Positions 8,339 through 39,694 of a stretch of DNA of 64,000 bases are shown piece after piece. A program made the translations under genes and the position numbers. This stretch comes from an uncultured Acidobacteriaceae bacterium. Its GTDB lineage: Bacteria; Acidobacteriota; Terriglobia; Terriglobales; Acidobacteriaceae. How positions within the stretch are numbered: position 1 is the stretch's first letter; each line of letters starts with the position of its first letter. Below the pieces are notes generated by a model that was not told the DNA's origin, ran no database searches, and worked only from the letters and a program-made list of their open reading frames with translations. The DNA is taken from positions 35,717 to 99,716 of the forward strand of contig CAWHSR010000003.1 of assembly GCA_963832015.1 (NCBI GenBank), read 5' to 3'.

Positions 8339-8738
8339 GAGATCCCCCAGCCAAAGAGTGACAATCACTCCGGGAATTCAATAAAGCAGGACTCGATTAT
8401 GCGGTGACTCCTGCCGCATGCGGTGTGATCAGCATCACAGAGGGGGGTGAGGTTAGGCACGATCGAGTTTTGGGACAAAAAGTTGCGCAAGACGTTGCAG
8501 GCGCATGATTTGCGGTCTGAGAGCTCAGGATGATGTGGGGTCAATCGCCCTCCGACATAGCTTGGTGACCCTCATCACGAGCGATCGTGAGGCTGAACAC
8601 ACAGAAACAACCTGACTTCCGTCCGTTCTCTTTGGCAGGCGTCAGAATCGAATCCCTGCAGAACTCGACGGATAGACAGCGACGACCCTAATGCGACTCA
8701 CACTTCTGGGATGAGAACCCACAGGCTGTTGCCGCCCT

Positions 8739-9782
8739 ATGTTCGCCTGGTTTGCCTCTGCCGGGCGAACCAACTACACTCGAAATTTTGCCGCGAGATC
8801 TTCCGCCAACCCTGGCGGCAGGCGCGGCGGGAGCCCTTTGGAGATCCTCGACCTCAGGCATTTTTCTTCCGTGGACCTGCGTCCTTTGCTGGACGACGAG
8901 ACGCAAGTCTGGTCACGCTTGCTGTCGTGGGATTATTCCGGCTCGGCGGAAATGATTCTCCGTTACGTCGACGCGAAAATCCTCCCGGGATATGCCGCCG
9001 TTGATCGCGGCCGCGTCTTCGGCTACTCGTTTTTTGTGTATGAGGGGAGTAAGGGAGTCATTGGCGACCTGTATGTCATCAATGGCGCCCGCCTTCCTAA
9101 TGCCCGCGAGGTTGAGCTAAAGCTGCTCACCCACGTGATCGAGACGCTGCAGCAGTCTCCGGGGATTCATCGCGTGGAGGCGCAGCTTCTGGCGCACGAC
9201 GCCAACGCAGTGTCGCGCCCGTTTCTCGAGACGGGATTCCAGCGGCATCCGCGCCTCTTCATGACTCTGAGTTTGGGGAAAGCTGCGGCCGAAAAGGTAC
9301 CGACGCATCCCGATGTTGAGATCCGCCCCTGGACCGAGGGTGATTACCAGCCTACTGCTGCCGTCATCACCGCGGCCTATCGCGGCCACGTTGACGCTCA
9401 AATCAACGATCAATACCACACGCTCAGCGGATCGTTGCGGTTCCTTAATAACATCGTGCGCTTCCCGGGATGTGGTGTGTTCGACGCAGAGTCGTCGTTC
9501 GTGGCCCTGGATCGAAAGGCGAAGAGTCTGATTGGCGTGATCCTGTGCTCGCGCGTGCGAAACAATGTCGGTCACGTTACGCAGGTGTGTGTGCTGCCGG
9601 AGTATCGCTCTCGCCGAATTGGGGAGTCTCTGCTGGCGGCTACCGAAGGCAGCCTGAAGAAGCGAAACTTCGTCCTTCTCTCGCTGACGGTGACCGAAGC
9701 GAATGCGCGTGCGGTTGCTCTTTACCGACGGCTGAATTTTGAGTCGAAGAGGATTTTTGACGCGTTTGTTTGGGAAGGCTAG
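8739..9782 (+). CDS. GNAT-family N-acetyltransferase (two-domain), start uncertain
   Basis: C-terminal acetyl-CoA motif region (VTQVCVLPEYRSRRIGESLL...ANARAVALYRRLNF). The N-terminal about 30 codons are low-complexity, so the true start may be later. Confidence 0.7.
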   Translation: MFAWFASAGRTNYTRNFAARSSANPGGRRGGSPLEILDLRHFSSVDLRPLLDDETQVWSRLLSWDYSGSAEMILRYVDAKILPGYAAVDRGRVFGYSFFVYEGSKGVIGDLYVINGARLPNAREVELKLLTHVIETLQQSPGIHRVEAQLLAHDANAVSRPFLETGFQRHPRLFMTLSLGKAAAEKVPTHPDVEIRPWTEGDYQPTAAVITAAYRGHVDAQINDQYHTLSGSLRFLNNIVRFPGCGVFDAESSFVALDRKAKSLIGVILCSRVRNNVGHVTQVCVLPEYRSRRIGESLLAATEGSLKKRNFVLLSLTVTEANARAVALYRRLNFESKRIFDAFVWEG

Positions 9783-9853
9783 CTTTGAGCGGCGAGCTGT
9801 GAGCTACGCGTAGAATCGGGCTTGCCTTGTAGCTCATCGCGAGCAACTCAGGG
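9782..9853. repeat. imperfect hairpin with NNNGAGC 7-nt words between convergent genes; candidate bidirectional terminator
   Basis: gtgagctac (9799-9807) pairs with gtagctcat (9829-9837) at 8 of 9 positions. The outer arms tttgagc ggcgagc tgtgagc are partly complementary to the right arm. Confidence 0.45.
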
Positions 9854-10036
9854 CTATCTTCGCAACACCCACATTGCCCAGCCGGCCACGAGCACGCCGC
9901 CGAGAAACATCGCGAAGCAATAAAGCCCGTACTTCACCATTTCGCGCGTGGTCTCGCGATGGGTGATGCCGAATACGATGGAGGCGAACAGGGCAAAGAC
10001 CGCCGCCGCACTGAGATGATTGAGAGTGATGGTCAC
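9854..10036 (-). CDS. small two-TM membrane protein, hypothetical
   Basis: 60-aa ORF with two hydrophobic helices, last in the co-directional string after the M24 peptidase. No family recognised. Confidence 0.35.
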   Translation of the reverse strand: MTITLNHLSAAAVFALFASIVFGITHRETTREMVKYGLYCFAMFLGGVLVAGWAMWVLRR

Positions 10037-11755: not shown

Positions 11756-12947
11756 ATGGCTGCGATAGCCGAATCCGTCCCCATCAAGCCAGCCCAGCGC
11801 GTCCGTATTGAGTCGATCGACGTGGTGCGCGGGGTCATCATGATTCTGATGGCGCTCGACCATACGCGGGATTTCTTCGGCAGCTCCGGCCTGAATCCCA
11901 CGGATCCGGCCACGACGACGATCCCGTTGTTCTTCACTCGCTGGATCACGCATTTCTGCGCGCCCGTTTTCTTCCTGCTGACCGGCACCGGAGCCTATCT
12001 TTCGCTGCGCAAGAAATCGAAGAGCGAGTTGTCGCAATTTCTGTTCACGCGCGGACTGTGGCTCATTTTTTTGGAGTTGGTCGTCTCACGATGCCTGGGA
12101 TGGGAGTTCAACTTCGACTACCACGTGGTCTTCATCATCGTTCTGTGGGCGCTGGGCTGGGCGATGATCGTGCTGTCGGCTGCTGGTGTATCTGCCGACT
12201 CCCGTCGTGGCGGCGTTCGGGATGTTGATGATCGCGACCCACAACCTGTTCGATTCCGTGCAGTCTTCGAATTGGCTGTGGACCATTCTGCACTCGCCCA
12301 ATTTTCTGCTGAACACCCCGACGCACACAGTGTTTGTGGGGTATCCACTCATTCCCTGGATTGGCGTGACCGCTGCCGGCTACGGACTTGGGCAGATTTA
12401 TCGTTGGCCGCCGGAACGGCGCAGGGCATTCTTGCTGCGGCTAGGGCTGGGGCTGAGTGCAGGATTTATCGTCTTGCGCGCGATCAACGTTTATGGCGAT
12501 CCACAGCGCTGGTCAACGCAGAAATCCGCAGCATTTACGGCGCTCTCATTTCTGAACACGACGAAATATCCGCCGTCGCTGCTGTACCTGTTGATGACGC
12601 TTGGTCCGGCAATGCTTTTCCTCTGGGCGGTCGATGCTGGGACGCCCCGCTGGCTGCGGCCCGCGCCGATCATCGGCAAAGTGCCCATGTTTTACTACCT
12701 GCTGCACGTCCCGCTGATTCATCTGATCGCCATCGCGGTGTGCTACGCTCGCTACGGGCAGGTCCATTGGATGTTCGAGTCGCCGACCATGGGTCAGTTC
12801 CCCATCACTCAGCCGCCGGGCTGGGGATACTCGCTGCCGATTGTCTACATGATATGGGCCGTTGTCGTGCTGACACTGTATCCGCTGTGCCGATGGTTTG
12901 CGGGATTGAAGCAGCGCCGCAGTGACGCGTGGCTGAGTTATTTCTGA
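11756..12947 (+). CDS. DUF1624 / heparan-alpha-glucosaminide N-acetyltransferase-like membrane acyltransferase, frame break about 12172-12185
   Basis: N-terminal IESIDVVRGVIMILMALDHTRDFF signature. The protein continues in ORF 12186-12947 (...YLPTPVVAAFGMLMIATHNLFD...). Confidence 0.7.
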
Positions 12948-13002
12948 GTTAGGCGCGGTCAAGTAGACGAGTTGTAATACAAATCCAGCCGCGGAGCGGC
13001 CT

Positions 13003-13086
13003 TTGAAATTAGCCCAGCGCTTCAGCGCTGGGTCGGCGCAACTAAATCAGAATAAGTCCTGGAGGGACGGCACAAGAGAAGCATCG
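13003..13086. repeat. dispersed Acidobacteria-type repeat containing hairpin cccagcgc-ttca-gcgctggg
   Basis: 8-bp perfect stem at 13012-13019 / 13024-13031 with loop ttca, between convergent genes. A related gcggcgc-ttca-gcgccgc hairpin lies at 46602-46619. Confidence 0.5.
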
Positions 13087-13816
13087 CTAAGCAGTCAGGA
13101 CCCGTGCACGCACGGTCTTCGGCAGCGTTTCACACGCCGTTCGCAGCACCAGCCGCGGAGCGCGCCCGCGAATCTTCATCAAATACGGTACCGTGCGGTT
13201 CGGATCGTACTTCGCCGTCTCGCGAAGCAGCCAGCCGAGGCCCTTCTGTACCATGTCATCCCGGTCGGTGAGGAGGAAATTGGAAAGCTTCACAATCTCG
13301 GGGAAGAACATTTTTGACCGCGCGCCGCGAATCATCGCCACACAAGCCGCTCGCCGATGCCAGCGTTTCGGCGACTTCGCCCAACGAAATACATCTTTAC
13401 GCGCGTTCTGGCTTCGCAGCCACCATCGGCGCAATCAGGTAATGCACCAGCCCGTCATGATCGGCCCAACTGCTGATGCGGTCGAGCCACGATGCGAACA
13501 ACTTGAATTCACGATCGCCGAACTGCGCGTCCATCTTCTCGAGCAGAAACACGGCGGCAACTTTTTCTTCGAGCACGCGGCCGGAGAATAGTTTGTCGGC
13601 CACTCTCACTAGGAAATCGAAGTCGTGCTCGCGCAGAATCTCGCGGCGCCATTGCCGCACGGCTCTTCGCAGTGCGGCGGTGTACCAGCCGTGCGATTTG
13701 ATCTCTTCTTTAAAGAACCACTGCACTCCGGCGGCGTGCTCGGCCGAGCCACCGCTCTTCAGCGCGTCACGAATTCGCGCTGCCACTCGGGACGGACTGT
13801 CCTTCGTCTTCGGCAT
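13087..13816 (-). CDS. DNA alkylation repair protein (AlkD-like HEAT-repeat family), frame break about 13400-13406
   Basis: ORF 13397-13816 carries the N-terminal part. ORF 13087-13434 carries RWAKSPKRWHRRAA...DMVQKGLGWLLRE. Restoring one base in the cgcgcg run gives ...AAKPERARKDVFRW. Confidence 0.7.
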
Positions 13817-13832
13817 AGGCGGTTATTCCGAA

Positions 13833-15247
13833 TCACGATTGCGCTGCAGACTCCGCAGCCGCTCCAGCGGTTCTCACAAACCTGTCATACAACCACAGCC
13901 CCGCTGCGGTCGCGAGTCCGATGCCGGTGATCCAGAACCAGATCATCTCCGGTTGGTGCTGGACTTCGCCGAAATGATGCAGCAGGAATCCGCCAAACGG
14001 CCCGCCGATCAGTGATCCAATGCCGATGGGCACGAACGCAAATCCCATATACGTGCCTTGCTGCCCGGGAGGCGCAAGCCGTGAGATGTATTCGTAATAG
14101 CGCGGGGCCTGTATGATTTCGCCCATCGCGAGGAAGAACAGCGAGAAGATCGCGCCCCAGATCGTGGGCCGGAAGGCGAGGATCAACCACGAGAGGGAAG
14201 TGATTACCGTGCCTAGAATAACTGCCGCGAATGCGGGAATCTTGCGCGTCAGGAAATTTACCGCGAGGGTCAGACAGATGACGGTCAATCCATCGACCAC
14301 TAGAATCATCTCGACGTCTGCATGCGCATTGATGTACCCATGAATGAATCCGGGCAGACTGATGTACTGTTGCCAGAAGACGATCCAGTAGCCGGTGAAG
14401 ATCACGAGGAACCACATGAAGCGGCTGATGCCCGCGAGCATCAGACACGAGGAACCCAATCCAGATCCACCATGGGACGGACCACTCCGGCTTCGTCCAA
14501 AGCGCGATGCGCAGGAGCAACGCGACCAGCAGCACGGGCAACACCAGGCGGTAATTTCCCAGCACGATGCAGAAATTCCGCGCGACCGTCGCGATGGAGG
14601 GCGGCGGCGCATCGCCGGCCTTCCGCGGCTCCCGGAAAAACAACAAAACCACAAAAAACATGGCGAACACGCTGAGAGCGGCCACCCGGTACACGTTCTC
14701 AACGCCCAGATGGCGATGTGCCCACGACGCAAAATAAGGCCCGGCAGCGCCGCCGATGTTCACCATTGTGTAGTAAATCGAATACCCGATGGAGCGAACA
14801 TTTTCTTTCGAAGCGCGAGCTGTGGTGCCGACCACGCATGGCTTGACCAGCGACACGCCGAGCGCCGGAAGGATCAGGATAAAGCCAACAAACAGCCCCA
14901 AGCGGCACCACGTTGCGGACGGGCGCCAGCCATGAAGCGCCAATCGAACCGATCAGAAAATACGAAGCGCCAAGAATGAGATACGCCACCGAAAGAGCGC
15001 GGCGGAATCCCAGTCGATCGGCAGCGGCTCCGCCGAAGATCGCGAGAAACCACACCATTCCGCCGAAGATGCCAGTCAGCGTGCCGGTCTGCTCGGTCGA
15101 GAAATTCAGCTTCTCCTGCAGATACAAGGCCAGGGACGCGAATGCCCCGTAGTAGGCCAGTCGCTCGAAAATCTCGGTGATATTGGCGATCCAGAAGGGA
15201 CGTTCGAATCCGGTGCGGATTTCTTCGAAGCGTTGCGAGAAGGACAA
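13833..15247 (-). CDS. POT/PTR2-family peptide:proton symporter (MFS), two frame breaks (about 14445 and the CCCC run 14896-14899)
   Basis: N-terminal FERLAYYG PTR2 signature. Three ORF pieces (14699-15247, 13885-14943, 13833-14732) join into one 12-14 TM protein. Confidence 0.8.
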
Positions 15248-15369
15248 AGTGGCTCCTAAAGGTTATGTGTCATCGGCGTTCGTCGCAGTCAGACAGAAGT
15301 CCTGCCACGCATTCTCGCTGTACACAGCGCGCGCAAGCTGCGGTCGCGACAGCCGGCGAGACGCCGGTG

Positions 15370-15657
15370 CTACGATCCAATTCGGTTGCGCAACTCGGCG
15401 GCGGAAATGCCCGCCACGCGTATCACTTTATTCCGGCTGGTATGGCCGGAGGCAATGGTAACGGAAGAGCGCGGCACCTTCAAAAGTTTCGCGAAGAATT
15501 CGATGCACGCCTCGTTGGCCCGGCCTTCGACGGGAGGCGTGGTCAGTGAGACTTTCAGCGCGTCGCCCAATTCGCCGGTGATGGCGTTCTTCTTCGCGCG
15601 GGGATGAACCCTGACCGCGAAGGATGCGCCATTGGCCACGTCTTGGAGGGGAATCAT
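15370..15657 (-). CDS. DUF167 (YggU) family protein
   Basis: 95-aa ORF with VRVHPRAKKNAI...L.V.LTTPPVEGRANEA, typical of DUF167. Confidence 0.8.
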   Translation of the reverse strand: MIPLQDVANGASFAVRVHPRAKKNAITGELGDALKVSLTTPPVEGRANEACIEFFAKLLKVPRSSVTIASGHTSRNKVIRVAGISAAELRNRIGS

Positions 15658-15667
15658 GGGCCGTGCC

Positions 15668-15805
15668 TCAATGCCCGGCCTTCCACATGGATATCAAAAA
15701 AAGAGTCAAGACGAGGCCGATACCAATAGCAACATAGGCAAGAAAATCACGAAGCCGATTCTGGCCTCGTGCGGTCGATGCAGCCCCAAAAGCTTGGCTG
15801 GTCAT
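15668..15805 (-). CDS. possible 45-aa single-TM peptide, translationally coupled
   Basis: The ATG overlaps the TGA of the upstream ORF (TGATG). C-terminal hydrophobic helix FLAYVAIGIGLVLTLFLI. No homology recognised. Confidence 0.3.
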   Translation of the reverse strand: MTSQAFGAASTARGQNRLRDFLAYVAIGIGLVLTLFLISMWKAGH

Positions 15806-16113
15806 CACCGGATGTAATGATCTTCTTTCCGCAGTGCCTGGAGCGCGTCTTTCCATGGCTGTTCTCGACTTGGTGATGCGTTCCGGTCGCGATCGCAAGC
15901 GCTCTTTAATAAATTCGCAATCTTTGATTCGTGTTCGTTTGAGTCGAAAGTGCGCTCGAACTCCGCGTTGACCTCGTAGATGTCGGGGAGCGACGGGCCG
16001 ACCTCAGTGAAGTACAGCATCTTCCTCTCGACATCCGAGAGAGATACATGTTCATGATCAGATTCTTCAAGCACCTTCGATATTAGAAACTGTTTTGCGG
16101 CGGTTGAATCCAT
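15805..16113 (-). CDS. hypothetical acidic soluble protein (102 aa)
   Basis: Clean ORF between yggS and the DUF167 gene. No family recognised. Confidence 0.5.
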   Translation of the reverse strand: MDSTAAKQFLISKVLEESDHEHVSLSDVERKMLYFTEVGPSLPDIYEVNAEFERTFDSNEHESKIANLLKSACDRDRNASPSREQPWKDALQALRKEDHYIR

Positions 16114-32875: not shown

Positions 32876-33433
32876 CTAGTTCAGATTCAACCGCTGGATG
32901 TTCGTTTCGCCCGCCTTCTTCACGCCCAGCGCGATCGGCCGCGGCGGCCCGTTGCGCGGAACCGTGGCCTGTACCCACAACTGGTCGCCCCTCGACAGGA
33001 CGGTAGGGTCCTTCGCAGTGTCGGGGATGAAAAATAGAATCGGCTGGTTGACCCGCAACCGGCTGGGGCCATTTCCTGGCCAGTAAGCGAAACTCAAGTT
33101 TGCGCAATCCCACGCCGGACTGTTGTCCAACTCCGCGGTGGGCGTTCCGTTGCGCAACACAATCGAGCCGCACCAGTGTTCAAAACTGTTCAAGCCGCCG
33201 GGTGGCGTTTGGCCCATCCACTGCTTGGAGATTTCCCCCTGCGAGCGCGGGTCACTCACCGTGACCTGCATGCTGACGTAGCGTCCTCGAATGGGGAGGT
33301 TTGGATCGTATTTCTCCGCCAAGAACCACGCCTGCGGACGCGTGCGCCGGTCATACAGCAACTTGGCCCCGAGCGAAGAGACGATCAGGATCTGAATCAG
33401 CGCGACGACAGCAGCCTTGGCAAGGGGTTTCAC
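32876..33433 (-). CDS. GDYXXLXY-domain-like exported protein
   Basis: GTG start in a GTGA overlap with the upstream stop. N-terminal TM (AVVALIQILIVSSLGA), then DPNLPIRGRYVSMQV, which resembles the GDYXXLXY motif. Classic partner of DUF2157 genes. Confidence 0.5.
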   Translation of the reverse strand: MKPLAKAAVVALIQILIVSSLGAKLLYDRRTRPQAWFLAEKYDPNLPIRGRYVSMQVTVSDPRSQGEISKQWMGQTPPGGLNSFEHWCGSIVLRNGTPTAELDNSPAWDCANLSFAYWPGNGPSRLRVNQPILFFIPDTAKDPTVLSRGDQLWVQATVPRNGPPRPIALGVKKAGETNIQRLNLN

Positions 33434-34302
33434 GCCATGCCTCCTGTCGCAGTCGGGGCTGTTCTGGTGCGCGCGACCAGTTTGCGGCGCAATTGCTCCA
33501 GTTGCCATCCTCCGAGCAGGAAGAGAACTCCGAAGGCGATGAGAGCGGCTGAGCGGTCCAGTTTGCCCATCACGTTGGAGAAATAAAAGGCCATGATGGT
33601 GAAGGCAAATCCCGCCACGCCGACGTTGATGCGCTCGCGGCGGTTTTCCTGCAGACCCCAAACTACCAGCCCCACGGAGGCGAGCGCACATTAGGAAGTG
33701 AAGGCTCAGGTTCTCAAACAGATTGCGATCATCGAGGCGACCGATCACATATACCCACACCGCGTAGCCCACGTTCCACACCGCCGCCTTGCCGCGCAGA
33801 AAATAAGCGGCCAGTAAGGGAAGGGCGAAGGCCATCAGCAGTCCGGCGGCGTTCAGAGAAAACGGAAGCGGGAGCGACGTGCGACCGAAGAAGGGTTCGG
33901 GGAGCATCGCCAGAGCCGCGCAGATGGGAAGCACTCCCAGTCCTCCCACCCAGACCAGGGCGCGCCGAAAATAGGAGTCCGCTCCTGGACGCCGTGCGCT
34001 CAAATACGTAATCGACAACAAGACGAGGAACTCAAAGAGCAGGCGATCCATGTCCCTGTAGTGGCCGGTTCGTACGCTCCACTCCGAGGCGATCAATGCC
34101 GGGATGAGCAGCGCACTCAGTGTGGCTGAAGCCAGTCGCGCAGCACCAGCCACGAAAGCACTGCACCGATTGCCCACAAGAGTATCCCGCCCGGCCAATG
34201 TTCCTGGAGATTGAAGATCTGGCCGGCGAGATAAATTCCGCCTCCGAGAGCCACGGTGCCGATGGCGTGCAGGGAGAGCCCAAGAGCCCGAAAGCGCGGC
34301 AT
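33430..34302 (-). CDS. DUF2157-like polytopic membrane protein, two frame breaks (about 34120 and about 33690)
   Basis: Pieces from ORFs 34117-34491, 32876-34198 and 33430-33675 join into one multi-TM protein (...IFNLQEHWPGGILLWAIGAVLSWLVLRDW / ATLSALLIPALIASEW... / CALASVGLVVWGLQENRRERINVG...). Confidence 0.55.
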
Positions 34303-34450
34303 GAGCACGCCGCCCGCCAGGTGAAATCCAGCGAGTTCAACCCGGCAAGGGATCTCGCGGACAGGCCTCGACAAAGTTTTCGGGTCTGAAATAACCCTTG
34401 ACACGAAAACTACTCTTGTAGTAGTAATGCATACGTCGGTAGGAGATGAA

Positions 34451-34837
34451 ATGCCCGGACCGAAATTAGCCAAGCTCGAACTGCAAATCATGGAAACTCT
34501 CTGGAACCGGGGCGAGGCCTCTATCCGTGAGATTCAGGAAGCTTTCCCGGAAAAAGGCAGGCCCGCATACACGACCGTGCAGACCACGGTCTATCGCCTG
34601 GAGGCTAAGAAGGCGGTGCGCCGCGTGAAGAAGGTCGGCAACTTCCACATCTTCGAAGCCGCGGTCTCGCGCGATTCCGCGCAACGTAAATTGATCGACG
34701 ACCTGCTGGCCCTCTTCGGGGGCCGCACGCAACCGGTCATGGCGCATCTAATCGAATCGGGCCAACTCACGCTCGGGGATGTAAAGGAAGCCGAAAGGAC
34801 CCTCCGCAAGTTGGAGAGAAAGGACAAATCAAAATGA
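34451..34837 (+). CDS. blaI: BlaI/MecI/CopY-family transcriptional repressor
   Basis: Winged-helix N-terminus KLELQIMETLWNRGEASIREIQEAF...YTTVQTTVYRLEAKKAV. Stop overlaps the blaR1-like start (ATGA). Confidence 0.85.
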   Translation: MPGPKLAKLELQIMETLWNRGEASIREIQEAFPEKGRPAYTTVQTTVYRLEAKKAVRRVKKVGNFHIFEAAVSRDSAQRKLIDDLLALFGGRTQPVMAHLIESGQLTLGDVKEAERTLRKLERKDKSK

Positions 34838-36726
34838 CCTTTGCATACTTGTCCGCACTCAATACGTCTGCGATGTGGAGAGACCTGGCCCCGACCCTGG
34901 GCAATCACCTGTGGCAGTCGACGCTATTCGCTGCCGCTGCTGGATTGCTCACGTTCGTGCTGCGCAAGAATCACGCGCGCGCCCGCTATTGGCTGTGGCT
35001 GGCGGCTTCGGTGAAATTCCTGATTCCGTTTTCGCTGCTGGTCAGCATCGGCACCTATCTCGCATGGTCCCACGCTTCGCCGGCAGCGGATGGAGGTTTG
35101 TACGTCGCTGTGGAAGCGATCAGCCAGCCGTTCTCGGTGCCCGACACAGCGATTCCGGCGATTGCTCAAGCCGCGCCGGCAGCGGCTGCACCGAGTCTGC
35201 TCCACTGGCTTCCGGCATTGCTGGTCGCCGCGTGGTTCTGCGGATTCGTGATCGTCCTTCTCGCATGGTGCGTGCGCTGGCGACGTATCTCCGCCGCTCT
35301 GCGAGAGTCAGCACCGTTGCACGAGGGACGCGAAGCCGTGACCCTGCGCCGTCTGGAGCGCAAGGCCGGTGCCCGCAAGCCGATTGACCTTGCGTTGTCG
35401 CGCGCATCTCTGGAGCCGGGAATCTTCGGCATCCTCCGTCCGGTCCTGATCTGGCCTGAAGGCATCTCGAAACATCTGGAAGATGCGCACCTGGAAGCAA
35501 TTCTCGCGCATGAACTGTGGCACGTGCGCCGTCGCGACAATCTGGCGGCTGCTCTCCACATGGTGGTCGAAGCGCTGTTCTGGTTCCATCCGCTGGTCTG
35601 GTGGCTGGGAGCGCGCATGGTCGAAGAGCGCGAGCGCGCCTGCGACGAAGAAGTCGTGGAACTGGGCAGCGAACGGCAGGTCTACGCCGAGAGCATTTTG
35701 AAAGTGTGTGAATTCTGCGTGGGATCTCCGCTGGCTTGTGTCTCTGGGGTGACTGGATCCGATCTTAAAAGAAGGATGGTGTACATCATGACGGAACGAA
35801 TTGCTCGGAAACTGGATTTCGGGAAAAAGCTGTTGCTGAGTTCGGCAGGCGTTCTCGCTCTGGCTCTGCCGCTCGTGTTCGGCCTGGTCAACGCGCCGAA
35901 AATGCGGGCGCAAGAGCAGGCCGCGACTGCGGGCGCGAGTGCCTCCAACGTCGAACTCATGGTCAAATCGGGCGCCGGCGGCGAGGCCCATCGAGTGGGA
36001 ATGATGTACTCGCCCACCGGATTCAAAGCGATGAATACGACTCTCCAGGCGCTCCTTCAAGAGGCCTATGGAGTCCAGGCCAACCAGATCATGGGAGGTC
36101 CGGATTGGATCAAGACCGCACCGTTCGATCTCCAAATCGGGCCTGAGGATGACAAATCCGCGCCGCCCAGCGGCACGAGCATCGAGCAGAGCCTGGAGCA
36201 GAGCAGGATTCGAAACCAGCGGCTACTGCGGGCGGCTTTGGCAGAGCGCTTCAAGTTGGCGCTGCATCCCGATAGCAGAGAGCTGTCGACCTATGCTCTC
36301 GTTGTGGGCGACGATGGGCCGAAGCTTCAGCCCGCAAAGGCCGCCAGCAGTTACCCTGCTCCAGTCAAAGGCCCGGACGGGATCCCCATGAATAAATCAT
36401 TCCGGATCAAGCTCAACGGCAGTCAGGCTGGGTTGGAAGCCCGCGGCATGTCTACCTCGGACATGGCATCGCATTTCTCACGCCAGCTGGGCACCGTCGT
36501 AGTAGATAAGACCGGCCTCACCGGCAACTACGACTTCAGCTTGAATTGGACGTCAGATGCGAGCGGCGGTGGCACATTCAACGCCCCTGTATCCGATGCT
36601 TCCGCGTCGTCGCTCTTAGCTGCGATCCAGGAGCAGCTGGGCCTGAAGCTGGAACCGCAGAAAGGTCCCATGCAAGTTCTCGTCATCGACCACGCCGAGA
36701 AGCCGGCGGAGCCCACGCAAAACTAA
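34834..36726 (+). CDS. BlaR1-like M56 membrane metalloprotease fused to a C-terminal TIGR03435-type domain
   Basis: HELWHVRRRD (HExxH) in a four-TM M56 module, an extra TM about residues 335-355, then a roughly 260-aa domain with GGPDW, RFKL, GPKLQ, DKTGLTGNYDF and QLGLKLEP...VLVIDHAEKP. Confidence 0.8.
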   Translation: MTFAYLSALNTSAMWRDLAPTLGNHLWQSTLFAAAAGLLTFVLRKNHARARYWLWLAASVKFLIPFSLLVSIGTYLAWSHASPAADGGLYVAVEAISQPFSVPDTAIPAIAQAAPAAAAPSLLHWLPALLVAAWFCGFVIVLLAWCVRWRRISAALRESAPLHEGREAVTLRRLERKAGARKPIDLALSRASLEPGIFGILRPVLIWPEGISKHLEDAHLEAILAHELWHVRRRDNLAAALHMVVEALFWFHPLVWWLGARMVEERERACDEEVVELGSERQVYAESILKVCEFCVGSPLACVSGVTGSDLKRRMVYIMTERIARKLDFGKKLLLSSAGVLALALPLVFGLVNAPKMRAQEQAATAGASASNVELMVKSGAGGEAHRVGMMYSPTGFKAMNTTLQALLQEAYGVQANQIMGGPDWIKTAPFDLQIGPEDDKSAPPSGTSIEQSLEQSRIRNQRLLRAALAERFKLALHPDSRELSTYALVVGDDGPKLQPAKAASSYPAPVKGPDGIPMNKSFRIKLNGSQAGLEARGMSTSDMASHFSRQLGTVVVDKTGLTGNYDFSLNWTSDASGGGTFNAPVSDASASSLLAAIQEQLGLKLEPQKGPMQVLVIDHAEKPAEPTQN

Positions 36727-36835
36727 CGGCAGATCATCTTTGGAGCAAGGCAACTTCCGGCAGGCATTCGGATTCTCACTCACCAGAGTTCCGACGTCCT
36801 GCCGGAACCACTTAGCCGCCTCAAAGAGGTCCGTC

Positions 36836-37696
36836 ATGTCCCATCGCAAGTGCTGTGCTGCCTTGCTGGCCGTCGCGGCGACGTTCTTTTGTTTGGCAAA
36901 CCGAAGCTGGGCTCAGTCCTCCGCGGAGAAGACCCCCGTGGGCGTTCCTTCCTACACGACCGTTTCGATCAAGCCCGACAAATCTGGGTTGCAAGCGCAG
37001 GGCCTAAAGCTCGGCCCCGGCGAGTTAACGGTAAAGAACGAGAGTCTGCAGATGCTGATTCGCCACGCGTATGACATCGAAGCGGATCAGATTCATGGAG
37101 GGCCGAGCTGGCTCGACTCGGAAAGATATGATGTTCAGGCGAAGGTGGACAAATCCGCAGTTGAGAATCTGCAGAGACTGGGTTCTGAGCAGGCCGATTT
37201 CGAACAGCGGCAAATGATGCAGGCGCTCTTGGCCGACCGCTTCAAGCTGGTGGTTCACCACGACACCCGAGCCGTTCCCGTCTATGACCTTGTCCTCGCG
37301 GAGAATGGCCCGAAGCTGCAACAGTCATTGCCCGGCGACGCGGAGGCCCAAGGCCGCGTGATTCAAGTTGGAAACGGACACATCACAGGCCGCGAGGTTC
37401 CAATCGCAACGCTAGCGAGCCTTTTGTCCGATCAACTAGGCCGCAGCGTTATCGACAAGACTGGCCTTGCGAACCACTACGACGTGACGCTGCAATGGCC
37501 GGTCTCGGCTGAGGGCCAGCAAGGAAGCGAGAACTCCTCGGCAGCGGAATCTTCCAGGGAACTGATCCTTGCTGCCGTTGCCGACCAGCTTGGCCTTAAA
37601 CTGGAGCCGCACGAAGTCCCCAAGGAAATCCTCGTCATTGATCATGTGGAGAGGCCGGCGCAAAAACTAGCACCGATCGTGCAATCGCCTGCCTAG
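36836..37696 (+). CDS. secreted TIGR03435-family protein (stand-alone paralog of the BlaR1 C-terminal domain)
   Basis: Signal peptide CCAALLAVAATFFCLANRSWAQS. Same motif series as the fused domain: GGPSW, RFKL, GPKLQ, DKTGLANHYD, QLGLKLEP...ILVIDHVERP. Confidence 0.75.
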   Translation: MSHRKCCAALLAVAATFFCLANRSWAQSSAEKTPVGVPSYTTVSIKPDKSGLQAQGLKLGPGELTVKNESLQMLIRHAYDIEADQIHGGPSWLDSERYDVQAKVDKSAVENLQRLGSEQADFEQRQMMQALLADRFKLVVHHDTRAVPVYDLVLAENGPKLQQSLPGDAEAQGRVIQVGNGHITGREVPIATLASLLSDQLGRSVIDKTGLANHYDVTLQWPVSAEGQQGSENSSAAESSRELILAAVADQLGLKLEPHEVPKEILVIDHVERPAQKLAPIVQSPA

Positions 37697-37772
37697 GTTA
37701 TGACGCCGAGGAAATGTAATCCATGCCGAATGCCCCGTTGGGGGAAAAGCCGTCAGCGCTAGTCGTTTTGCA

Positions 37773-37810
37773 TCGTGAACCTTAGTGTCCTTAGTGGTTA
37801 ACGCCTTTGA
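37773..37810. repeat. direct-repeat box tcgtgaaCCTTAGTGtCCTTAGTGGttaacgcctttga, copy A
   Basis: 35 of 38 positions identical to 40164-40202. Contains a tandem CCTTAGTG 8-mer at 9-nt spacing. Upstream of the amidase gene. Confidence 0.55.
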
Positions 37811-37887
37811 AATAAACTCTCCCCATTGCTCCGCGCACGATGGCAACTGCTCAAGCGATAGCAGCTAAAATACCCCGCGGAGGATTC

Positions 37888-39694
37888 ATGGCGAAATCGC
37901 GCAGGCAATTTCTGACAATCACATCGATGGGAATCTTGGGAGCGTCGGCCGCGCTCCAAGGGCAAAATACGGCGCAACAAAATCCTGCTGATCTCCCCCC
38001 CGGCGCCCCACCGGCCTTCGGCGCAGGCCCGGCCGTTGGGCCGGAAGTGTCCGCGACAACCTTCGCCGAGGCCGAAAAGCTTGTCCAGTTTGAAATGACT
38101 CCCGCCGAGCGCACGGTGGCCGCCGACAGCTGGCGCAAGACAATGGCCGCCCTTTATGAGCGGCGCACCGGCCCGCGCAAACCTCGCGTTGCCCACAACA
38201 ATCGCTCCTGCCACGCGCTGGGATCCAATCCTCCCTGGCCAGAAATCCGGTCCAGAGCACGACCGCTTCGTACGCAGCTCAATCGATCCCGGCCCGCTGC
38301 CCGCGCGCGATGAGGACATCGCATTCGCGACAGTCACGCAACTCTCGCGCTGGATCGAAACACGCAAGCTCACCTCCGAGCGCCTCACGAACATCTACCT
38401 GAAGCGACTGCAGCATTTCGATCCCAAGCTGCGCTGCGTGATCACCCTGACTCGCGACCTGGCGCTGAAGCAGGCCAAGCAAGCCGACGAAGAAATTTCT
38501 GCCGGCAAATATCGCGGACCGCTGCACGGCATTCCGTGGGGCGGAAAAGATCTGCTCGATACCGCTGGCATTCTGACTACATACGGCGCAGAGCCCTTCC
38601 GCAATCGCGTCCCCGCTGAAGATGCCGTGGTGGTGAAGCGTCTGCGCGAAGCCGGCGCAGTGCTGGTAGCAAAGCTCAGCCTCGGAGCCCTCGCGCTCAA
38701 CGACATCTGGTTCGGCGGTCAGACGATGAATCCGTGGCTGCTCGAGGAAGCCTCGTCCGGATCGAGCGCCGGCCCTGGTGCTGCCACCGCCGCTGGTTTA
38801 GTCGGATTCAGCATCGGCAGCGAAACCGGCGGCAGCATCATTAGTCCATCGATGCGTTGCGGCATCACTGGACTGCGCCCAACCTACGGTCGCGTTGCGC
38901 GCACGGGTGCCATGACTCTCTGCTGGTCCCTCGACAAACTTGGCCCCATGACCCGCAGCGTCGAAGACGCCATGCTCGTACTGCACGCGATCACCGGCCC
39001 CGACGCTGGCGATGTCGACAGCGTGCCAAGCCATCTCGATTTCGACGCGTCGGCGAGTATAGCGGGCCTGCGCGTTGGCTACTTCCCCAAGTGGATGCAG
39101 GAGAATCCCGCCACAGAAGTCGATCGCGCTGCAGTAGACGTGGTGAGGAAGGTGGGCATGGTTCCCGTCGAGGTATCGATTCCCGACTGGCCCTACGATT
39201 CGCTTAACCTTATTCTGTTCGCGGAAGGCGCGGCGGCCTTCGAAGAATTGACACTTGGCGGAGGACTCCGCGAACTCAAAGCCCAAGTCCCCGATGCCTG
39301 GCCCAACATCTTCCGCCAGGCGAGATTTCTCTCAGCGGTCGACTTCGTGCAGGCCGATCGTCTCCGTCGTAAAGTCGCCGAAGAAATGGCGCGCCTTTTT
39401 TCGCAAGTCGATCTGTTGTTGGTTCCCTCGGTCCGCGACGAAATGCTGACCATTACAAACTTCACCGGCCATCCCGCGTTAGTGCTGCGTGCAGGATTCG
39501 TTAAAGTCGCGAAGGCCCGCAGCGACTGGGCTCCCGACCCGGCTCATCCTCTGCCGACGTTCAACCCCCCACGCCGCGTTCCGCACGGAGTGACGCTGAT
39601 CGGCGAGCTGTTCGAGGAAGGCACGATGGTCAACGCGGGCCTCGCCCTGGAACAAGCATTCGGCGTGGTAGGAGAGCGTCCGCCGGGCTTCTAA
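37888..39694 (+). CDS. amidase-signature family amidase with Tat-type signal, frame break about 38178-38184
   Basis: MAKSRRQFLTITSMGILGASAA twin-arginine signal. Amidase signature GGKDLLDT...SSGSSAGPGAA...GSETGGSIISPS. ORF 37840-38313 joins ORF 38156-39694 at ...YERRTGPRK / LALPTTIAPATRWDP. Confidence 0.85.

Follow-up and report, generated by a model that had tools for sequence, protein, structure and literature searches.

A candidate BlaI/BlaR1-type derepression switch with a DUF3738 sensor domain and a secreted copy of that domain in an uncultured acidobacterium

The repressor, its operator and the membrane protease

The subject of this work is a set of three neighbouring genes in a 64,000-nucleotide (nt) stretch of DNA, here called the window (forward-strand positions 35,717-99,716 of contig CAWHSR010000003.1, assembly GCA_963832015.1), from an uncultured Acidobacteriaceae bacterium whose proteins have their nearest database matches in metagenome-assembled genomes of Candidatus Sulfotelmatobacter and Acidobacteriaceae. 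All three lie on the plus strand. Gene 1 (34451-34837, with an alternative ATG at 34427) encodes a winged-helix repressor of the BlaI/MecI/CopY family (128 amino acids), gene 2 (34834-36726) an M56 protease joined to a DUF3738 domain (630 amino acids), and gene 3 (36836-37696) a secreted stand-alone DUF3738/TIGR03435 protein of 286 amino acids counted from its ATG, with a signal peptide at about residues 1-27; the longest open reading frame (ORF) of gene 3 begins at a TTG at 36740. By analogy with BlaR1 and BlaI, we propose, with a probability of about 0.6, that these genes form an autoregulated proteolytic derepression switch in this relative of Candidatus Sulfotelmatobacter, to which gene 3 would add an accessory copy of the sensor domain.

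The gene coordinates, the common direction and the ATGA overlap between the gene 1 stop codon (34835-34837) and the gene 2 ATG (34834-34836) were all verified in the sequence, as an earlier description of this DNA, the original prediction, had given them. That description also spoke of a tight unit, which holds for genes 1 and 2 and does not hold for gene 3, since gene 3 follows gene 2 after a 109-nt spacer, a conserved 5′ leader that also precedes solitary copies of such genes, which have promoter-like sequences of their own. The start of gene 1 at 34451 is favoured by an AGGAG 5 nt upstream and by a MPGPK/MAGPK beginning shared with relatives. No further copies of the three families were found elsewhere in the window, and the three-gene observation is far beyond chance. 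For comparison, 80 species-level genomes supplied repressor upstream regions, 73 of which were used to build a position matrix; conserved residues were read from alignments of 83 repressor and 82 sensor homologues, and family-wide neighbourhoods were counted over 75 assessable loci (individual loci carry the prefix L).

Gene 1 matches Penicillinase_R (PF03965) with an E-value of 2.5e-23 and 83 bits against a cut-off of 22.6, over profile positions 2-113 of 115, so that the hidden Markov model (HMM) search which the original prediction had suggested agrees with its BlaI/MecI-type repressor. The closest solved relatives are Rv1846c of Mycobacterium tuberculosis (2G9W) and BlaI of Staphylococcus aureus (1SD4). 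The protein is free of cysteine and stays below the threshold of the CopY equivalog TIGR02698 (51.3 bits, cut-off 121.95), and a CopY-type metal sensor was ruled out on these grounds. S. aureus BlaI is cut in its dimerisation domain between N101 and F102 (PMC9834060), and this scissile bond aligns to H99/L100 of gene 1. The surrounding segment, FGGRTQPVMAH/LIESG (FGGRTQPVMAHLIESG, the slash marking the aligned bond), is nearly invariant among the 83 homologues, which is compatible with cleavage by the partner protease rather than proof of it.

Upstream of gene 1 we found two operator-like dyads between 34409 and 34445, where a search for a BlaI operator had been proposed; neither is assigned to a strand. 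Dyad 1 (ACTACTCTTGTAGT, 34409-34422) is a perfect 5+5 palindrome, detected as an inverted repeat between the AGGAG ribosome-binding site and a -35-like hexamer of the operon promoter (TTGACA, 34399-34404, plus strand) that is conserved, at an unchanged spacing to the dyad, in most of about 70 related regions. Its core, TACTCTTGTA, agrees at 9 of 10 positions with TACANNTGTA, the core sequence described for BlaI/MecI operators (PMC1935004) and for the CopY box (PMC7253601), which is present in exact form upstream of many relatives. Dyad 2 (ATACGTCGGTAGGAG, 34431-34445) overlaps the ribosome-binding site of gene 1, agrees with TACANNTGTA at 8 of 10 positions and differs from the dyad-1 pattern by two mismatches. 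The matrix for dyad 1 reads CTACa..tGTAGTAG, with GTAGTA present in 60-73 of the 73 regions, and the order across relatives is TTGACA, then CTACA-NN-TGTAGTAG, then the conserved dyad-2 form (A)TAC-N4-RTAG(G/T)AG over the ribosome-binding site. In 41 regions exactly 21 nt separate the right half-site of dyad 1 from that of dyad 2, a spacing that on the DNA would equal two helical turns.

A simple sigma-70 scan did not return a full promoter upstream of gene 1 because the -10 element is non-canonical. Dyad 1 occurs nowhere else in the 64 kb, only at the operon's own promoter, and a regulon within the window was rejected on this ground. Of 74 assessable loci, 73 have a blaI gene directly upstream of the sensor gene (a strict count of 68 plus five loci with over-extended ORF calls), and the two genes mostly overlap by 4 nt. 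From this sequence conservation, autoregulation of the repressor through its own operator appears very probable.

The N-terminal part of gene 2 (34834-35868, plus strand, residues 1-345) is of the BlaR1-type membrane gluzincin class. Peptidase_M56 matches residues 26-318 (E 4e-41), and the M56 metalloprotease read earlier from the HELWH motif (residues 226-230) is thereby supported. H226, E227, H230, E267, D271 and R314 are invariant across the 82 sensor homologues, and the catalytic residues align to the zinc ligands H201/H205/E242, D246 and R294 of S. aureus BlaR1, in which the ligands and a D246-R294′ pair have been described (PMC9834060). An AlphaFold model of the full-length protein is of moderate quality overall (mean predicted local distance difference test score, pLDDT, 68; predicted template modelling score, pTM, 0.41), with a reasonably confident protease core and C-terminal domain. 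When it was compared with the PDB by Foldseek, the top six matches were S. aureus BlaR1 (8EXS/Q/P/T/R) at probability 1.00, with a TM-score of 0.61 to 8EXR, a transmembrane-plus-protease entry, and M48 gluzincins ranked after BlaR1. The predicted topology is BlaR1-like, with a cytoplasmic protease, a last transmembrane helix and a periplasmic C-terminal domain. The BlaR1 equivalog NF000326 (blaR1_generic) gives 91.9 bits against a cut-off of 400 and matches over its positions 86-317 of 585; because this is the protease part only, gene 2 is taken to have no penicillin-binding domain.

Two segments of gene 2 have positional counterparts in BlaR1. The last transmembrane helix and linker (35821-35913, plus strand, residues about 330-360) carry the motif NAPxxRA/Q; the modelled helix spans residues 330-364, of which about 330-352 are predicted to lie in the membrane. 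The position of the motif corresponds to G331/Q332 of BlaR1, where SpsB cuts and sheds the sensor domain (PMC9834060). Between transmembrane helices 2 and 3 lies a variable, low-confidence periplasmic loop (35062-35208, residues about 77-125) with an invariant Q98-P99-F100. We infer from position alone that this QPF loop could be the counterpart of the EL1 loop that plugs the sensor domain of BlaR1, whose extracellular loop occupies the sensor site (PMC9834060).

Between the window and L005 the synonymous divergence (dS) of gene 2 is 0.92 in the M56 part and 0.32 in the DUF3738 part, and the pattern is reversed against L004, which suggests recombination inside the sensor gene that would swap sensor domains. 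Sensor arrays stand behind blaI in L040-L043 and L063 and in L048, L062, L066, L073 and L075, composed either of blaI, an M56 gene without DUF3738 and an M56::DUF3738 gene, or of one blaI followed by a tandem of two to three complete M56::DUF3738 genes. L040 has a blaI-M56 pair without a fused sensor and a free DUF3738 gene about 700 nt later.

The DUF3738 domain, its secreted copies and the conserved leader

The periplasmic domain of gene 2 (35974-36726, plus strand, residues 381-626, modelled with a pLDDT of about 82-92) matches DUF3738 (PF12543) over residues 406-620 with E 6.7e-52 and 176.8 bits (cut-off 22), and TIGR03435 with E 2.2e-53 and 181.5 bits (cut-off 40). Under the same cut-offs gene 3 matches the two profiles with E 8e-59 and 199.3 bits, and with E 1.3e-62 and 211.7 bits. 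The two domains are 37% identical over 239 residues (E 1e-45) and both contain every motif of the series listed in the original prediction: GGPDW/GGPSW, RFKL, GPKLQ, DKTGL..YD and QLGLKLEP..LVIDH.E.P. The HMM matches and the identity together argue for the common ancestry claimed for the two C-terminal regions, and the scores, along with the failed BlaR1 equivalog, agree with the original prediction that the sensor is of the TIGR03435 type and not a penicillin-binding domain. A penicillin-binding relationship was also considered from the K-T-G in DKTGL and rejected; this is judged coincidental, as the SXXK/SXN context is missing and neither HMMs nor the fold lend support, and DUF3738 gave no match to a penicillin-binding protein or beta-lactamase by sequence or fold.

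Structure prediction of the domain, as had been suggested, gave a confident model of gene 3 (69 free homologues in the alignment; pLDDT 83.5, 176 residues at 90 or above) without a relative in the PDB: the best Foldseek match had an E-value of 1.2, with TM-scores of at most 0.14. The DUF3738 part of the gene 2 model likewise had no PDB neighbour by Foldseek, and a profile search of PDB sequences with DUF3738 returned no match. DUF3738 is thus provisionally a new fold, as judged from predicted models against PDB structures. The model contains four helix-hairpin-like units; an internal duplication was rejected after hhalign of the two halves gave E 0.09.

The family is large. By profile search it has 48,192 representatives at 50% identity, 32,987 of them at E of 1e-10 or below, and the M56+DUF3738 fusion makes up at least about 8,000 clusters, nearly all of them from Acidobacteria of soil and peat. 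In databases both Pfam domains are already annotated together on thousands of proteins, and what is novel lies in the functional understanding of this architecture: in the literature searched we found no function, structure or paper on DUF3738/TIGR03435 under any name, and likewise none on M56 in Acidobacteria. Polar and aromatic residues conserved in fused and free domains alike are, in gene 3 numbering, Y79, Q85, W92, D99, K103, K137, H141, Y150, K160, D207, T209, Y215, D216, W221, Q251, K255, D269, H270 and E272. They point to a single biochemical property common to all these domains and speak against a diversified ligand pocket.

Gene 3 begins with a typical Sec signal peptide, MSHRK followed by CCAALLAVAATFFCLA and NRSWA/QSS, and with its DUF3738 match is the signal-peptide-bearing stand-alone copy that had been predicted. 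BLAST alignments of free proteins to sensors begin at the last transmembrane helix of the sensor, and the junction consensus is LPxVFGLxNAPxxRAQ in fused proteins and APxVxxSxNATQSRAQ after the hydrophobic segment of free proteins. Because the alignments begin at the helix and the NA(P/T)xxRAQ junction is common to both, the free genes derive from partial duplication of the 3′ part of sensor genes, with the transmembrane helix reused as a signal peptide. The A/Q junction has the form of a signal-peptidase site, and the gene 3 protein would amount to a permanently shed sensor domain. The ratio of nonsynonymous to synonymous divergence (dN/dS) is 0.22-0.24 for gene 3, 0.19-0.27 for the fused domain and 0.13-0.19 for the protease part; this purifying selection, together with the retention of the conserved polar residues of the family, indicates that gene 3 is functional.

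The orthologues of gene 3 (277 amino acids) form a group with 70-83% identity, after which identity drops to 58% or less. All those with readable context stand directly after a blaI-M56::DUF3738 pair (L004, L008, L083, L084, L085, L092, L094 and L101). The gene is cleanly missing, at the same boundaries, from L003 and L005, where blaI and the sensor are kept, and L001/L006 and L002/L007 have other arrangements without it. We rejected a reading of at least two independent losses, as L003 and L005 share their boundaries and the locus recombines; the pattern is a presence/absence polymorphism with several downstream arrangements.

In the wider family, one to three free copies lie directly downstream of the sensor in 16 of the 75 loci, a second domain is fused in cis (M56-DUF-DUF) in five and another complete sensor comes next in two, so that 59 have no downstream free copy and 54 lack a second domain of either kind. 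Free copies occur in the flanks at a background rate of 0.34% per gene, for which 16 of 75 corresponds to a binomial P of 3e-24. The adjacency therefore reaches beyond the genome of the window, into eight loci of the orthologous clade and these 16 family-wide, and is not the peculiarity of one genome that it might have been; the trio as such is conserved only in its own clade. In a neighbour-joining tree of the domains the free copies come out as polyphyletic, with some placed as sisters to their neighbours (68% identity in L052, 59% in L039) and gene 3 of the window in an old separate lineage. M56-less DUF-DUF tandems also exist and, with the M56-DUF-DUF fusions, show that domain pairs recur. 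That the fusion class of about 880 amino acids arose by joining of genes 2 and 3 was rejected, since neither similarity nor the tree groups its distal domains with gene 3; and because fused and free second domains are polyphyletic, we claim no simple fission or fusion relationship. The picture is one of recurrent local duplication of the 3′ half of the sensor gene with occasional long-term retention, not of a fixed two-component receptor.

The spacer between genes 2 and 3 (36727-36835, plus strand) is a conserved non-coding leader that ends in a GAGG Shine-Dalgarno sequence just before the ATG. More strongly conserved than the gene on either side, it has a nucleotide identity of 91-98% in L004, L008, L083-L085, L005 and L003, against an identity of 67-83% for the flanking proteins at a dS of about 0.5, and it is kept in relatives without gene 3. 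The predicted fold has a minimum free energy of -48.3 kcal/mol (z -5.2), with an outer stem TTCCGGCAGG / CCTGCCGGAA (36755-36764 / 36798-36807, plus strand, predicted pairing) around an invariant core hairpin GGATTCTCACTCACCAGAGTTCCG (36770-36793, plus strand; pattern GGATTCTCA[C/G]TCACCAGAGTTCCG). A metagenome scan with the leader core GGATTCTSASTCACMAGRNTTCCG found 13 contigs. The core lies in some of them between a sensor gene and a gene-3-like gene, in others 50-120 nt before solitary free DUF3738 genes (L091/L093, L102 and L103; also L090), and in L095 and L098 upstream of an unrelated secreted protein of about 160 amino acids. The solitary leaders are preceded by TTGGAA-N17-CAGAAT and followed by AGGAGG-N6-ATG; in the M56-linked leaders the upstream promoter-like sequence is degenerate. 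On these sequence features the spacer behaves as a transcribed 5′ leader.

Several other readings of the spacer were set aside. That it codes for protein is unlikely for both strands, because L004 and L008 have indels at its edges whose lengths are not multiples of three. A large structured RNA was considered on account of the stable hairpin and rejected, as distant copies share only the 8-bp hairpin with its invariant loop, which is all that is common to all copies, and the alignments contain no covariation or compensatory change. An Rfam 15 covariance search of 34200-38000 gave no match to the leader, with one chance-level match elsewhere (E 0.77), and the alignment consensus does not support sequestration of the gene 3 Shine-Dalgarno sequence by the outer stem. 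Neither an operator nor a terminator was found between genes 2 and 3.

Downstream of the leader lies a hotspot of rearrangement (about 12100-14500 in L004, about 7790-10170 in L096). A protein of about 795 amino acids with FG-GAP/VCBS-like repeats follows gene 3 in L004 and, in L096/L099, which have no gene 3, stands directly after the leader in place of the amidase gene described below.

These observations bear on whether gene 3 has anything to do with the sensor. It could be independent, either a leftover of partial duplication or an inserted module of leader and free DUF3738 gene with its own promoter. The occurrence of the leader, with TTGGAA-N17-CAGAAT, before solitary free DUF3738 genes and before the unrelated secreted protein points that way, as do the free copies that stand alone in L088, L090 and L103, the recent origin of some adjacent copies from their neighbours, the clean absence of gene 3 from L003 and L005 and the lack of an operator in the spacer. 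However, the gene 3 lineage is old (37% identity to its neighbour, 70-83% to its orthologues) and has stayed behind the same sensor lineage during divergence, under purifying selection; the promoter-like sequence of M56-linked leaders is degenerate, with no terminator between genes 2 and 3; and the M56-DUF-DUF fusions show that selection has repeatedly kept two domains together. Independence is accordingly a serious but unlikely explanation, and we retain gene 3 as an accessory of the switch.

Neighbouring genes and what the domain may sense

In 22 of about 75 loci, the next gene on the same strand after the system encodes an outer-membrane barrel protein of about 1,040 amino acids with CarboxypepD_reg and OMP_b-brl_4 domains (PF25183, E 3e-163), often after a gap of 18-40 nt (for example L034, at 12821-15931, L050 and L043). 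In L086/L087 two free DUF3738 genes flank a barrel of the same type (9161-12304 in L086) where M56 is absent, barrel-linked operons are enriched in free copies (9/12 vs 10/52; odds ratio 12.6, Fisher P 4e-4, uncorrected for phylogeny), and one homologue is an M56-DUF3738-TonB_C protein. These findings could mean that DUF3738 is not a small-molecule sensor and is instead a periplasmic module coupling to barrels like TonB-dependent receptors, a counterpart of FecA/FecR/FecI in which the free copies would be extra barrel partners. The M56-TonB_C fusions of Bacteroides (PMC10350073) and the polar residues invariant across the family, which suit a common partner, fit such coupling as well. On the other hand, no PF25183-type barrel is present in the 64-kb window, whose clade has hydrolases instead; 42 of 52 single-domain loci have no barrel nearby; the adjacency may only mean that the barrel is a regulated output; and Foldseek against the PDB found no likeness to TonB, FecR or other known barrel-binding domains. 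We regard it as improbable, if about as worthy of attention as an independent gene 3.

A combined version, in which DUF3738 reads the state or cargo of a barrel or another envelope partner and drives BlaI cleavage while free copies set the threshold in trans, perhaps by competing for the QPF loop or a shared partner, is slightly less probable still; if true, it would be a third kind of trans-envelope signalling, abundant in Acidobacteria.

The clade of the window has other neighbours. An amidase gene (PF01425, E 7.8e-76; 37888-39694, plus strand) with a twin-arginine translocation (TAT) signal, SRRQFLT, follows gene 3, with its frame broken near 38180. It is split into overlapping ORFs at 37840-38313 and 38156-39694, and a tblastn alignment with the intact 624-amino-acid orthologue from L003 switches frame at about 38180, so that the break is either a real frameshift, which would make it a pseudogene, or an assembly indel. 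Counting this one, the TAT-amidase follows the system in at least 14 related loci of the window's clade, at 68 nt after gene 3 in L083 and L084, and is possibly a further member of the unit or one of its outputs. In three relatives a gene of PF00144, the beta-lactamase/DD-peptidase family, with a signal peptide lies between blaI and the sensor gene with stop/start overlaps (L085, 2500-3987; L001, 6712-7980, equivalent to L006; L076, about 8576-9949); it is absent from the window. Outputs thus likely differ by clade, to judge by gene content, with periplasmic hydrolases here and TonB-receptor-like barrels in the 22 other loci.

The hydrolases raise the question of a bla-like operon, equivalent to bla operons in function but with a sensor not homologous to theirs, in which the system of this clade would respond to a beta-lactam-like, D-Ala-peptide-like or other amide compound and induce periplasmic amide hydrolases. 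The embedded PF00144 gene and the recurrent exported amidase are what such an operon would contain. However, PF00144 and PF01425 are both broad hydrolase families, many of whose substrates are not antibiotics; the window has no PF00144 gene and a broken amidase frame; and DUF3738 has neither the SXXK/SXN context nor the fold of a penicillin-binding domain, which leaves such a cue quite unlikely. Least probable by far is that gene 3 is an obligate co-receptor, the working sensor being always a heterodimer of a fused with a free domain, as the fusions, the free tandems and the strongly non-random adjacency might suggest, because 59 of 75 loci have no free copy and 54 no second domain at all, close orthologues without gene 3 keep an intact sensor under purifying selection, and the BlaR1 homodimer (PMC9834060) already implies two fused domains per complex.

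On the other side of blaI, a divergent ORF of 440 amino acids (32876-34198, minus strand) has no Pfam match, and syntenic relatives have at its position a protein of about 210 amino acids and a Big_1 protein of about 1,030 amino acids.

A proposed derepression switch and its relatives

In the derepression switch that we favour, a repressor dimer would shut the operon off at rest, until a periplasmic cue acting on the DUF3738 domain switched on the cytoplasmic protease, with the QPF-bearing periplasmic loop perhaps taking part in activation as the EL1 loop does in BlaR1. The protease would then cut the repressor near H99/L100 and the operon would be derepressed. The protein of gene 3 would bind the same ligand or partner as the sensor, tuning or executing the response, and signalling would have no need of it. 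Co-expressed outputs in this clade would be the TAT-amidase and, in some relatives, the PF00144 serine hydrolase. Modelled on BlaR1, cleavage of the repressor by the protease is the likely logic; DUF3738 as the signal-receiving module is, on the same analogy, somewhat less secure but still probable; and an action of gene 3 on the same cue or partner is a tentative suggestion that may well prove wrong.

Several points weigh against this switch. Every mechanistic step, from ligand through cleavage to transcription, rests on analogy, and the structural model of gene 2 is of moderate confidence only. V303/S304 of gene 2 aligns to the BlaR1 autocleavage site S283/F284, with the kind of residue not conserved. 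Having a leader of its own, gene 3 may be regulated separately, in which case co-regulation with the sensor would not be assured and the unit would be looser. Gene 3 is dispensable, and not needed for the switch, in that close relatives keep blaI and the sensor without it; the polyphyly of the free copies indicates that they are no single partner subfamily, and free DUF3738 genes are found as well at loci remote from any M56 gene (L088, L090 and L103). Finally, the same polar residues across the whole family point to a common partner rather than to diverse ligands.

The closest known systems are BlaR1-BlaI of S. aureus and B. licheniformis and MecR1-MecI. Like these, the system of the window couples a winged-helix repressor gene to an M56 gluzincin gene, has two copies of a TACANNTGTA-type operator over the promoter, and combines an HEXXH...E zinc site, an EXXXD motif and a partner arginine with the BlaR1 fold of the transmembrane and protease part. 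It also shares with BlaR1 an extracytoplasmic sensor domain after the last transmembrane helix and a signal-peptidase-like site in the linker, and with BlaI a conserved repressor segment at the position of the scissile bond. Unlike BlaR1 and MecR1, whose sensor is a penicillin-binding domain like class D beta-lactamases, it carries DUF3738/TIGR03435, and in a Gram-negative host the sensor domain would be periplasmic. The genes form a co-directional operon with the repressor first, whereas BlaR1-BlaI is arranged as a divergon with blaZ, and the residues at the autocleavage site differ. By its repressor family and by the core and fold of its M56 protease the system belongs with this group; by its sensor, which is not a penicillin-binding domain, it does not belong with BlaR1/MecR1.

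Atypical BlaR/BlaI pairs (Rv1845c/Rv1846c of M. tuberculosis, that of M. abscessus and PvmS/PvmR of P. aeruginosa) likewise join an M56 protease to a BlaI-family repressor without penicillin-binding sensing, and the repressor nearest in sequence to gene 1, Rv1846c, belongs to one of them. These pairs have no sensor domain and their signal is unknown (bioRxiv 10.64898/2026.08.03.742534), whereas here a large, conserved periplasmic domain is present, and duplicated. In the Gram-negative Bacteroides thetaiotaomicron, TonB1 and TonB10 are M56-TonB_C fusions, uncharacterised and suspected of signalling (PMC10350073), in which an M56 N-terminal module is likewise followed by a different periplasmic C-terminal domain; unlike them, DUF3738 has no detectable similarity to TonB_C. 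FecA/FecR/FecI is a functional analogy only. It resembles the 22 barrel-linked loci of the wider family in having a periplasm-facing inner-membrane sensor linked to a barrel gene, and our proposal in that regulated proteolysis releases a transcription response; it differs in that there is no sequence or fold kinship, the output here would be repressor cleavage and not sigma-factor release, and no barrel lies near the system of the window.

Both C-terminal regions are clear members of Pfam DUF3738 (PF12543) and of the NCBIfam 'Soli_TIGR03435' paralogous family, entries that consist of names only. Since databases already carry labels for this architecture, the system is no new kind but a very abundant, uncharacterised variant of a known one; what is new here is the probably novel fold, the recurrent duplication of the sensor domain and the unexplained conserved leader.

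Acidobacteria of soil and peat are abundant and very difficult to work with, and little of their signal transduction has been mapped. To our knowledge, nearly all that is known of BlaR1/BlaI concerns its role as an antibiotic-resistance switch in Gram-positive pathogens; here, a protease and repressor working on the same principle would be joined to a different periplasmic domain without a structural relative. DUF3738 is also a good target for structure determination. With its conserved operator, defined promoter and compact three-gene unit the system is directly testable, and the repeated pairing of the wider family with barrels or periplasmic hydrolases suggests that such switches may control the uptake and breakdown of nutrients or xenobiotics.

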